Positions 13,651 to 62,859 of a stretch of DNA of 64,000 bases are shown here, one piece after another (position 1 is the first letter of the stretch; every line of letters begins with the position of its first letter). Source of the DNA: Octopus vulgaris (taxonomy: Eukaryota); contig OX597816.1 of the NCBI GenBank assembly GCA_951406725.2, positions 4,588,001 to 4,652,000 on the forward strand. The letters run 5' to 3'. The notes under the pieces were generated by a model. It searched no databases, was not told where the DNA came from, and saw only the letters and a program-made list of their open reading frames with translations. A program made the position numbers and the translations under genes.

Positions 13651-14023
13651 GTATGTATATATGATGGGATACTTTCAGTTTCTGCCTCTCACGGGGCTTT
13701 GGCCAGCCTGGGGCTTTTGTAGAAGACACTGTTACAAGGTGTCACGCAGTGGGACTGAAACTAGAACCGTATGGTTGGGAAGCAAGCGTCTTGCCACAGA
13801 GCCACTCATATGTATAAATGAAATACCTACATGCGCCCATGGAAAAAAAGCCGAACCAAAAGTCATGAGTACATATGTCATCAGCATATTGGCATAGAAA
13901 CAATTTTCTTTTGCCCTTGTTTATAAGTTGTTTATAATTTTAGCCTTTAAAGGTATTTTAATATGGTGCCACTTTTTTGATGAAATTTTTTTCTGTAAGA
14001 AACTTCATCCCATATTAGTAGTA

Positions 14024-14064
<41 letters not shown>

Positions 14065-41369: not shown

Positions 41370-42417
41370 CTAGATGGTGTTAAGAGCATCATCTGACCAT
41401 GATTGTTGCCAGAGCGGCTAACTGGCACCTGTGCCGGTGGCATGTAGGAGGCACCATTCGAGTGTGATTGTTACCAGCATCGCCTTACTGGCACCTGTGC
41501 CGGTGGCATGTAGGAGGCACCATTCGAGTGTGATTGTTACCAGCATCGCCTTACTGGCACCTGTGCCGGTGGCATGTAGGAGGCACCATTCGAATGTGAT
41601 TGTTACCAGCATCACCTTACTGGCACCTGTGCCGGTGATATGTAGGAGGCACCATTCGAGTGTGATTGTTACCAGCATCGCCTTACTGGCACCTGTGCCG
41701 GTGACATGTAGGAGGCACCATTCGAGTGTGATTGTTACCAGCATCGCCTTACTGGCACCTGTGCCGGTGACATGTAGGAGGCACCATTCGAGTGTGATTG
41801 TTACCAGCATCGCCTTACTGGCACCTGTGCCGGTGGCATGTAGGAGGCACCATTCGAGTGTGATTGTTACCAGCATCGCCTTACTGGCACCTGTGCCGGT
41901 GGCATGTAGGAGGCACCATTCGAGTGTGATTGTTACCAGCATCGCCTTACTGGCACCTGTGCCGGTGGCATGTAGGAGGCACCATTTGAGTGTGATTGTT
42001 ACCAGCATCGCCTTACTGGCACCTGTGCCGGTGGCATGTAGGAGGCACCATTCGAGTGTGAATATTACCAGCATCGCCTTACTGGCACCTGTGCCGGTGG
42101 CATGTAGGAGGCACCATTTGAGTGTGATAGTTACCAGCATCGCTCTACTGGCACCGGTGCCGGTGGCATGTGTAATAGATTTGAGCGAGGTTGTTGCCAG
42201 TACTGCCTGACTGGCTCCCATGATAGTGGCATGTAAAAAGCACCCACTACACTCTTGGAGTGGTTGGCATTAGGAAGGGCATCCAGCTGTAGAAACTCTG
42301 CCAGATCAAGACTGGAGCGTGGTGCAGCCATCTGGTTCGCCAGCCGATAGTCAAACTGTCCAACCTATGCTAGCATGGAAAGCGGACATTAAACGATGAT
42401 GATGATGATGATGATGA
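41370..42417 (+). mobile_element. Family A RTE 3' UTR carrying an expanded minisatellite
   Basis: Normal family A 3' block and (GAT)n at 42230-42417. Confidence 0.88.
41422..42171. repeat. 66-bp minisatellite, ~11.3 copies
   Basis: CTGGCACCTGTGCCGGTGGCATGTAGGAGGCACCATTCGAGTGTGATTGTTACCAGCATCGCCTTA head-to-tail, no spacers. Confidence 0.97.
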
Positions 42418-43967: not shown

Positions 43968-44820
43968 ATATCTTTGACTTGTTTCAGTCATTAGACTGTG
44001 GCCATACTGGGGCACTGAATTGACCCCCACCCTACCCCCAGTAGCATTTGAAAACCTGGTACTTACTCTATTGGTCTCTAAACTGCTGAGTTACAAAAAC
44101 AAACCACCTGACGAAGTACTGGGAATGATGTGGGGTTGATTAAAAGCTTTACAGGTGATGCCCCAGCATGGCCAGACTACAATGATGGAAATTAGCCAAA
44201 TGATAAAAGAACAAAACAATCTTTTGTAGACAGTATAAAATGTAGTATTGTAGCAAGATTGTCTTTGAATATCGAATTTGACCTCACCCTTTTGGAATAT
44301 CTGACAGCAGGGTTAAATAAGATTGTAGATAAGTCTGCTGTAAAACCAGGATTGCTTGATACCATAGATTATATTTCACATAACGATTGTATACAGATCA
44401 AAAACAGATGATAAAAAAAAAATTGATGTTCTGGCTTTGCTCTGGATTATTTTGATTTCATATTTCCCGTTCTCATTCTAACAATTTGACTTGTAGGCTT
44501 TCTGTCATAATCTATGTTTAACTTACAACAGCAGGGGGTGAGGTGGGGTGGGGAAAGAAAGAAAGAAAGAAAGAAAACAGCATGGTTTCTGATATTTCTC
44601 TATATTTTTAGATAAAATTTATTATTTAGAGTATTTTTAGGATTATAGGTGCAGCGTGGCTGCGTGGTAAGTTTGATTCCCAACTACAAGGTTCTTGGTT
44701 CAGTTCCACTGCATCGCACCTTGGGCAAGTGTTTTCTACTATAACTTTAGACTGACCAAAATCTTGTGAGTGGATTTGGTAGACGGAAACTGAAAGAAGC
44801 CCATCAGATATATATATATA

Positions 44821-45115
44821 TAGCTAAAGGGTTACAATTAATCAAAGGACATACTAAGTATGTCTACCTGCTGGAAATAACAGTCACAACTCTTATATAA
44901 ATTGTCAAAAAAGAACTGGTGGCATGTGCTGAGGAGAGTGAGGCTATAGTGCCTGTCCAGAGGCCAGTCTATGTGGGTCCAAGTGCTTGGATGTATGATG
45001 AGAGATTGTCCTGGTCCAATTGCCCACAGACAACTGTAGTTATCACCAGTCTTTTTCGGTGATTTAAATAAGACATACTTGGTATGTCCTTTGATTAATT
45101 TCAATCCTTCAGCTA
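44821..45115. mobile_element. MITE-like element with ~44-bp terminal inverted repeats
   Basis: TAGCTAAAGGGTTACAATTAATCAAAGGACATACTAAGTATGTCT versus reverse complement of 45071-45115; TA at both ends. Confidence 0.7.
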
Positions 45116-45483
45116 TTTAATGCTCTTCTGGGGGACCTGCAATTGCCTATATTATTGATTCTGTTATTATCATTTTTAGTTGTTACACTAGATAATAATA
45201 GAGTCAATAATATCTTTGCAAATATTTTCTCCTAAAAAATTAGAAAAAAACCCCACTTTTTATCAATTCAAAATGAACAATTAAATTACACCATCTAGAA
45301 AATTACATATAATAAAAATATAAAAAATAAAATAACAATAATATACCAGTGATTAAGTAAATTGCAAAATAATAATAAAAACGTATATATTTGGTAGAAT
45401 AACGACACAGGTTTCATGGCTATATTTAAGAAATGATTATAGTAAAACGTATTACATAATAATAATAATAAAAATATATATAT

Positions 45484-45518
<35 letters not shown>

Positions 45519-45751
45519 TATATATGAGGATAATATCGATATTTAAGTATCAAATTATCAAGTGGCCAGCATGAAAAAAATACCTTACAAAGGTAAAAAA
45601 TTTTTTTAACAATTAAAAATGAGGGTGTCTAAAAGACACCAACATGCCGAAATAGCAGTCAAAATTCTGACTATAAAACCACGTTAAATGTTCATATCGC
45701 ACCATGAGGTAAAGCGGAGGGACAAAACATACAAGCAAAAATTATTGAATA

Positions 45752-45811
45752 ATTCAAGATCCAAGGATTTCTGGTTCTGCTTTAAATAAGCTTTACCGTC
45801 ATCAATTGAAT
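45752..45811 (-). ncRNA. Hammerhead-like fold, U3 core variant
   Basis: Identical to 46438-46497. Confidence 0.55.
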
Positions 45812-46437
45812 ATATCAAGGGTACATAAATACAGATATATATATGCACAGCAAACGATATACTTACATATACGAGCGTCGTACATACATACATATGCACG
45901 TATGGACACTGCCATTTGAATCGCCCGCCAAATCACCGCATAAGAACGATATGGTTAAAATAAGCACCGCAGTGAATATAATCACGAATTATATAAATTT
46001 ATATATGAGGATAATATCGATATTTAAGTATCAAATTATCAAGTGGCCAGCATGAAAAAAATACCTTACAAAGATAAAAATACCTTACAAAGGTAAAAAA
46101 TTTTTTTAACTGCTATTTCGGCATGTTGGTGTCTTTTAGACACCCTCATTTTTAATTGTTAAAAAAATTTTTTACCTTTGTAAGGTATTTTTTTCATGCT
46201 GGCCACTTGATAATTTGATACTTAAATATCGATATTATCCTCATATATAAATTTATATAATTCGTTATTATATTCACTGCGGTGCTTATTTTAACCATAT
46301 CGTACTTATGCGGTGATTCGGCGGGCGATTCAAATGACAGTGTCCATACGTGCATATGTATGTATGTACGACGCTCGTATATGTAAGTATATCGTTTGCT
46401 GTGCATATATATATCTGTATTTATGTACCCTTGATAT

Positions 46438-46497
46438 ATTCAATTGATGACGGTAAAGCTTATTTAAAGCAGAACCAGAAATCCTTGGATCTTGAAT
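46438..46497 (+). ncRNA. Hammerhead-like fold, U3 core variant
   Basis: ATTCAA-TTGATGA-C-GGT..GCTT..AAGC..ACC-A-GAA-ATCC-TT-GGAT-C-TTGAAT: perfect 6-bp stem I, 4-bp stem III, AUC site; C-A at the base of stem II. Confidence 0.55.
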
Positions 46498-46669
46498 TAT
46501 TCAATAATTTTTGCTTGTATGTTTTGTCCCTCCGCTTTACCTCATGGTGCGATATGAACATTTAACATGGTTTTATAGTCAGAATTTCGACTGCTATTTT
46601 GGCATGTTGGTGTCTTTTAGACACCCTCATTTTTAATTATATATATATAAAAATCAAAAAATGAAAAAA

Positions 46670-46973
46670 TCAAAAGTCAAAATCGATCAACATGAATGGA
46701 AATTGTCGGTGTGATATCAGTGCTGGTGGCACATAAGAGAACCATCCGAACGTGGCCGTTGCCAGTGCCGCCCTGACTGGCTTCCGTGCCGGCGGCACGT
46801 AAAAAGCACCCACTACACTCATGGAGTGGTTGGCGTTAGGAAGGGCATCCAGCCGTAGAAACATTGCCAGATCAGACTGGACCTGGTGCAGCCTTCTGGC
46901 TTCCCAGACCCCAGTTGCACCGTCCAACCCATGCCAGCATGGAAAGCGGACGTTAAATGATGATGATGATGAT
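46670..46973 (+). mobile_element. Family A RTE 3' end
   Basis: Same signature as other family A copies. Confidence 0.85.
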
Positions 46974-46976
46974 ATA

Positions 46977-47201
46977 TTGCGTTGCTGCATAATTATTGCA
47001 TTTCTTTTCAACAAATTTTATTTAACAAAATACATCTTTAAATGATGATCTGACCGTCTGCCAAGCAAATGGGAAGCAGTAATTGAAGTGGATGGTGAAT
47101 ATGCTCCAGAATAATTATTTAAAGATGTTTTTGTTATATGTTGTTATTGCTTTTGTTGAATAAAATTTGTTGAAAAATGTTGCAATAATTATGCACCAAC
47201 T

Positions 47202-47204
<3 letters not shown>
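46977..47204 (+). mobile_element. Mariner-derived MITE
   Basis: TA-flanked TIRs TTG(C/A)GTTG(C/G)TGCATAATTATTGCA; internal DRLPSKWEAVIEVDGEYAPE* resembles a mariner transposase C-terminus. Confidence 0.85.
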
Positions 47205-47235
<31 letters not shown>

Positions 47236-62798: not shown

Positions 62799-62859
62799 GA
62801 TAAAACTCCGAGTTTCAGATGTCAGGGCAGAAACCCACACCAACATCTCTTCAGTTATC
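62799..62859 (-). ncRNA. Type I hammerhead ribozyme
   Basis: GATAA-CTGAAGA-GATGTTGG...CTGACATC-T-GAAACT-CGG-AGTT-TTATC: perfect 5-bp stem I, 8-bp stem II, GUU site, one extra U before GAAA. Confidence 0.65.

Follow-up and report, generated by a model that had tools for sequence, protein, structure and literature searches.

On balance, we favour the reading that the inverted repeat studied here arose as a single insertion of a hammerhead-bearing repeat that is young, dispersed and without an ORF. The insertion was likely written by a borrowed Penelope-like RT/GIY-YIG protein, with priming from the two ends of a cut (TA)n target, and copying probably went round a monomer-length, likely circular RNA. 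The repeat (family A in the following) was found in a stretch of 64 000 nucleotides of the Octopus vulgaris genome (contig OX597816.1, positions 4 588 001 to 4 652 000), hereafter the window, in whose coordinates the features of the locus are collected in Table 1.

Table 1. Features of the family A insertion and of its target (window coordinates).
Feature	Position	Strand	Remarks
(TA)n microsatellite, left target side	45474..45516	.	(TA)n also at outer ends of most family loci
Conserved structured domain with both fixed 3' end sites, arm L copy	45516..45658	-	
Arm L, 1.2 units	45517..46110	-	3' end at 45517, unit 481 (fixed site 'long'); 5' end is unit 388
Type I hammerhead-like motif, arm L	45750..45813	-	U3-G8 core; predicted cleavage after 45758
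19-nt local duplication near arm L 5' end	46074..46092	-	Read directly from the letters
AC microhomology, head-to-head junction of both 5' ends	46109..46110	.	
Arm S, 1.1 units	46109..46638	+	5' end is unit 339; 3' end at 46638, unit 387 (fixed site 'short')
Conserved structured domain, arm S copy	46110..46252	+	
Type I hammerhead-like motif, arm S	46436..46499	+	U3-G8 core; predicted cleavage after 46491
Short (AT)n, right target side	46639..46650	.	An unrelated interspersed repeat of very high copy number follows

The unit of family A is 481 nt long and ORF-less, and the insertion has (TA)n on both sides, as had been described from the letters of the window alone (the sequence-only reading). 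The GC content of the unit is 33%, and none of the six frames contains an ORF. Both arms are longer than one unit, again as described: arm L comprises 594 nt (unit 388-481, one full unit and the 19-nt duplication, which the sequence-only reading does not mention and which probably arose by slippage prior to joining), and arm S comprises 530 nt (unit 339-481 followed by unit 1-387). The two-nucleotide AC junction is indeed common to both arms, which differ at 7 of 468 compared sites, in line with the count of about seven substitutions made earlier, and each arm carries one hammerhead-like fold, with U3 in place of C3 in its core. The inverted repeat 45611-46101/46148-46638 is 491 nt long with 96% identity. 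No target-site duplication other than (TA)n is visible at the locus. The statement that the arms begin at different points of the unit was correct for their 5' ends, but the outer 3' ends are two sites that are fixed throughout the family.

The junction is known from the assembly alone, and the sequence-only reading had itself pointed to a fold-back artefact as a possible origin of the palindrome. This was not borne out: the two arms differ at the 7 sites mentioned and do not share a fixed end point, and dozens of loci (55, this one counted or not) show this build with other junctions, so that we regard an artefact at this locus as next to impossible. Because there is only one hammerhead per strand, no monomer can be freed from the locus by two cuts; the locus represents a product and has no capacity to be a source. 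Read-through of the locus would give a predicted hairpin of 491 bp with 96% identity.

An exact 20-mer over the hammerhead core gave 258 matches genome-wide (control, 0). The first 100 of these correspond to 61 loci on contigs C1-C5, from which about 150 hammerhead-bearing loci can be estimated for the whole genome by scaling. In total, 102 loci were examined, including all 61 of this unbiased core-match list. Arms longer than one unit numbered 82 of 175, with a maximum of 3.49 units, although arm lengths are biased upward because most loci came from best-hit searches. Head-to-tail copies with a hammerhead in each unit occur in the family (e.g. L002 and L099, with 3-4 motifs), while at the present locus no two hammerheads are consecutive, there being one per arm.

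The copy endpoints, whose tabulation the sequence-only reading had proposed as a check, gave a divided answer. The 5' ends of the arms vary uniformly round the unit (chi-square p 0.21), with no pile-up at the predicted cleavage site (4 observed vs 7.6 expected in the 102 loci). The 3' ends, in contrast, are fixed: 155 of the 175 arms stop at one of two sites 94-102 nt apart, which are here called short (unit 383-393; 84 arms) and long (unit 478-9, wrapping past 481; 71 arms), the other 20 arms ending elsewhere. The two sites are used in pairs, as 55 of the 65 head-to-head loci combine one short and one long end, none is short+short or long+long, and 10 have one odd end.

This footprint is that of Penelope-like elements, which form partial tandems with an inverted, 5'-truncated copy and a tail of 30-40 bp at one end (Craig et al., 2021, PMC8557442). 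The tail was explained in vitro as the distance between two internal RT start sites, both target strands being nicked and extended by an enzyme for which a dimer is predicted (Frangieh et al., 2024, PMC11167929). The octopus genome contains very young autonomous RT+GIY-YIG families. In one of them, with a 775-aa ORF, all of 11 inverted loci hand-picked from the match list were short+long in (TA)n, with a tail of about 30 nt; the tail is about 38 nt in a 781-aa family. The (TA)n target is thus common to family A and to the autonomous elements, whereas the tails of the sampled autonomous families measure 30-38 nt vs 94-102 nt in family A. Since the footprint is otherwise the same, the locus is a standard twin-primed Penelope-type insertion, non-autonomous and with a longer tail.

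The 775-aa family is present in at least 150 copies that are 100% identical over 193 aa, many of them in tandem or inverted pairs; this suggests a very recent burst and makes the family a candidate enzyme source. Canonical Penelope-like elements are described with one ORF. The young autonomous families at L307:5340-8938 and L094:768-4471 have two overlapping ORFs, one of about 430-480 aa lying upstream of the 775-/781-aa RT+GIY-YIG ORF, and ORF1 of L094 gave no Pfam match above the cut-off. No autonomous partner sharing sequence or end domain with family A was found in about 70 sampled Penelope-containing stretches (150 of 6136 GIY-YIG candidates scored), BLAST and two covariance models over the sampled GIY-YIG/RT loci returning only separately inserted ORF-less relatives.

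The resemblance to autonomous elements raises the question of whether the unit is simply the pseudo-LTR of one of them, and its copies the 5'-truncated ends, an outcome that the sequence-only reading had named as fatal to its own proposal. The footprint is identical in kind, and autonomous pLTRs in this genome are about 500 nt long. However, an RT/GIY-YIG ORF is joined to the repeat at none of the 102 loci, which include the 61 behind the 100 listed core matches on contigs C1-C5; the tblastn matches near two of the 102 are separate insertions. Moreover, the units run head to tail into themselves, and an ORF is likewise lacking in the sister families B (480 nt) and C (555 nt). The pseudo-LTR origin, largely refuted already, is in our opinion very improbable.

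The two fixed 3' sites lie in a conserved domain. Enclosed by its long-range helix are two hairpins with the short site, single-stranded, between them, and a third hairpin stands before the long site. In the comparison of family A with family B, 94% of this fold is paired, with two double changes. The domain is a putative RT-binding domain. Family B is about 76% identical to family A, older, and has a C3-G8 core; family C has mostly a U3-A8 core and keeps the architecture of family A with a different sequence, 5 of its 7 inverted loci being short+long. A further ORF-less sister, family D, was also recognized.

Several related sequences were observed along the way. L178:330-1846, L166:633-1212, L291:1423-1489 and L038:2641-2795 are more members of a clan with hammerhead units of 480-560 nt, with C3-G8, U3-A8 and U3-G8 cores and the end-domain fold in common. 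L100:1151-2125 is an ORF-less tandem of a 495-nt unit in (TA)n, with a hammerhead in each copy. L097 (C9:44017000-44019500) contains an apparent segmental duplication of 1.96 kb that includes a family B inverted insertion and its flanks. In the window itself, a 5'-truncated, D-like ORF-less copy with its terminus in (TA)n is present at 13870-14030.

Since an Rfam scan of the locus gave no hammerhead match (nor any other credible family), and since in local folding the hammerhead is not the minimum-energy fold but lies 3.3 kcal/mol above it, the motif needed comparative support. The type I secondary structure is supported by compensatory changes between families in helices I-III. Between families A and B, three pairs are changed on both sides and 96% of the cells pair, vs 14-48% in slid controls. 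It should be noted that the covariation in the hammerhead and in the end domain comes from few independent events, and that the measure of pairs with double change was not above shuffles; nevertheless, both structures appear to be under selection. The circular fold of the unit has a z of -4.4 (40 shuffles). Among 64 listed hammerhead copies, the sequence across the cleavage site is unchanged save for scattered point changes.

The core of the motif is unusual. Genome-wide, 258 of 261 exact cores of family A are U3-G8, so that the canonical core (C3-G8 or a Watson-Crick covariant), present in sister family B, is not the core of family A, and helix II begins with a mismatch. A U3-G8 wobble would be expected to lower the activity of a hammerhead. 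In nature, the C3-G8 pair covaries to U3-A8 (PMC3088659; PMC4209133), and a natural U3 core receives a passing mention (PMC7151607). Of 9 predicted frog retrozyme dimers, 8 failed to cleave (bioRxiv 2026.07.22.740005), and Penelope insertion in vitro did not require the hammerhead to cut (PMC11167929).

The sequence-only reading had proposed a reverse-transcribed copy of a circular or multimeric RNA. This is supported in part: the insertion is reverse-transcribed, non-autonomous, and derives from a template that was either longer than one unit or circular. The permutation, however, does not by itself argue for a circle, since the outer ends correspond to two fixed Penelope RT starts, and since Penelope RT begins internally on uncut multimeric RNA in vitro (PMC11167929).

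More information on the template came from sequence variants. Divergence was 1.1% between tandem units within an arm (143/12906), 1.0% between inverted arms (104/10370) and 2.2% between loci (56 loci). Mismatches at diagnostic sites amounted to 10/321 within an arm and 8/240 between inverted arms, vs 38% between loci (56 loci). The substitution counts omit L011 and L064 (gapped alignments) and L312-L314 (C3 in the core, more diverged); duplicate records of one locus, including L003 and L023, were dropped, and further exclusions, chosen post hoc, were nine haplotype sites in linkage and the A/T runs of unit 387-425. A heterogeneous linear multimer as template would be expected to leave variants that the two arms share at just a single register. 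Among the 5020 informative site-locus cases (95 loci), no such variant was found, while 50 variants were in all copies and 8 (from 5 loci) filled every unit of one arm but none of the other. These patterns favour a monomer-length template read repeatedly, and at some loci they would fit two different RNA molecules as templates of the two arms. Gene conversion, or very homogeneous young sources, are a possible alternative cause.

Both causes belong to the main competing explanation, namely that Penelope twin-priming took place on uncut, linear, multimeric read-through RNA from homogeneous arrays, with a weak or vestigial hammerhead, no circle, and arm-wide variants produced by later gene conversion among the tandem units of the insertion. 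The in vitro behaviour of the Penelope enzyme (internal start on unprocessed RNA, dispensable hammerhead; PMC11167929), the U3-G8 core, the lack of a 5'-end pile-up at the cleavage site (4 vs 7.6 expected) and the modest length of the longest arm, only 3.49 units, all agree with it. On the other hand, it does not account easily for the contrast between zero same-register variants and the 8 arm-wide and 50 all-copy ones, nor for several distinct haplotypes each filling whole arrays, for which a monomer bottleneck is needed. In addition, low-frequency G alleles (7-24% of loci) occupy all tandem units of 17 of 21 arms, and divergence within arms is not below that between arms, contrary to late homogenisation. 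We consider this explanation unlikely, though it deserves to be taken seriously. If the template was instead a linear monomer cut by the hammerhead, and the RT made multimers by jumping from its 5' end to its 3' end, the signature of a monomer template would be explained without ligation; however, no scars are seen at the cleavage site in the 64 listed hammerhead copies, and 5' ends do not pile up there, which makes such jumping quite improbable.

A second line of information comes from the direction of the substitutions. On the hammerhead (sense) strand, A>G changes number 124 vs 83 T>C (expected share 0.40), while single-copy variants that post-date insertion show no A>G excess (19 vs 35). 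All 7 recurrent A>G sites tested were found on each of the two haplotype backgrounds, whereas 9 of 10 other sites are confined to one. The two arms disagree at recurrent A>G sites in 11 of 29 cases, vs 6 of 85 at haplotype sites (p 0.0002). Sharing of G within an arm (17/21) vs between arms (18/29) is not significantly different (p 0.21), and the site-level test, with p 0.007 in an earlier set, rose to p 0.08 when loci were added; the A>G events are not independent. No such excess was seen in family B (rate ratio 1.04), family C (0.86) or the 781-aa element (1.0). Taken together, these data give hints of RNA editing fixed into DNA. One could speculate further that RNA circles, each with A-to-I edits of its own, are copied into the germline by a dimeric Penelope RT whose subunits each go round a separate circle from one of the two structurally defined start sites. 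Edits would thereby become heritable and drive the evolution of a retrozyme that goes on spreading with a U3-G8 wobble core, but we put this forward only tentatively and hold it to be rather doubtful. If the A>G signal were editing, RNA edits would have a direct path into genomic DNA.

In the runs that we guess to be RNA, the family occurs as assembled contigs. Comparison by eye of one contig end in such a run, X2, with the family B copy L128 gave a match over 30 letters in which C replaces T at 8 of the 12 T positions and all else is identical. This match, which hints at transcription and hyper-editing of inverted copies, bears on family B only and not on the present locus.

According to the reading that we prefer, that of a Penelope-type insertion copied round a monomer-length RNA, a tandem source array would be transcribed, cut by its hammerheads and circularised. 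A dimeric Penelope-like enzyme would then nick both strands of a (TA)n target. The short and the long site of the conserved RNA domain would each serve one subunit as its start, and both subunits would read past the unit boundary. The two cDNA ends would finally be joined by microhomology, and A-to-I edits on the template RNA would probably be fixed as A>G.

Some other features of the window may be mentioned. Two short inverted-repeat elements bounded by (TA)n, with 88% identical arms, are located at 44817-45119 and 46972-47209; they may be truncated insertions of the same type but of greater age, or else MITEs. Weak hammerhead-like pattern matches at 62854 (minus) and 15643 (minus) are probably due to chance or decayed. 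A tandem array with a unit of about 60 nt, at 41418-42269, has long open frames on both strands.

Mobilization of animal retrozymes by Penelope through circular RNA has been proposed (PMC7229834; bioRxiv 10.64898/2026.07.22.740005) on the basis of co-occurrence and similarity to pLTRs, not of insertions, and a circular-template model was also proposed for Penelope pLTR hammerheads (PMC4209133). Family A gives testable rules, i.e. one arm per start site in every canonical inverted insertion and a conserved RNA domain round the sites, and its variant patterns separate circular from linear templates. To what was known of this kind of element it adds the wobble core and the two-template and editing signatures. 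Our literature search, which covered few subscription journals and no supplements, found no paper that deals with family A, with an obligate combination of short and long ends in retrozymes, or with edits that became fixed in copies of this kind. Hammerhead, ribozyme and retrozyme are absent as terms from the main text of the octopus repeat annotation paper (PMC13282606), whose supplements may hold the family under another name.

Among known systems, plant LTR retrozymes, with a type III hammerhead in their LTRs and a 4-bp target-site duplication, are ruled out by the type I topology and by the lack of such a duplication. The minimal hammerheads of Penelope pLTRs, which include U3-A8 forms (Cervera and de la Peña, 2014, PMC4209133), share with family A the type I topology, the extra nucleotide after position 9, a near-palindromic helix III and the occurrence of opposite-strand pairs (100-700 bp apart); in family A, however, U3 pairs with G8 as a wobble (C3-G8 in sister B and mostly U3-A8 in C), and helix III is longer than in the minimal palindromic hammerheads of the autonomous families of this genome. 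Penelope-like elements (PMC8557442; PMC11167929) are similar in their two fixed 3' ends, one-sided tail, inverted 5'-joined arm, AT-rich or (TA)n targets and hammerhead upstream of the ends, but family A differs from those described there in lacking an ORF, in its tail of 94-102 nt and in having its ends in a conserved multi-helix domain. The Chlamys element MRC1 (PMC8557442) is likewise non-autonomous and of Penelope type, with multicopy head-to-tail insertions; unlike family A, the Chlamys elements are described as sharing 3' sequence with an autonomous family and as belonging to a clade without canonical hammerheads.

Family A inserts like a Penelope-like element and in its working resembles the metazoan non-LTR retrozymes (Cervera and de la Peña, 2020, PMC7229834; Li, Clavereau and Pollet, 2026, bioRxiv 10.64898/2026.07.22.740005), which have a short, ORF-less, low-GC unit with one type I hammerhead per unit, head-to-tail copies, and co-occurrence with Penelope-like elements. 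The 481-nt unit is slightly above the range of 150-450 bp given in the former source and inside that of 51-972 bp given in the latter. As far as these two descriptions go, family A departs from them in its U3-G8 core and the mismatch at the base of helix II, in being dispersed in copies of up to 3.5 units instead of long arrays, and in its head-to-head arms with two fixed ends (the word 'inverted' occurs 0 times in the main text of PMC7229834); in addition, the cleavage and circles of retrozymes are, for family A, predicted from sequence. Because the core is not canonical, and cleavage and circle are predictions, we have filed family A as retrozyme-like and not as a proven retrozyme: it is a retrozyme-like, non-autonomous parasite of Penelope, a known kind of element, with a predicted self-cleavage, a predicted circle and a predicted partner enzyme.
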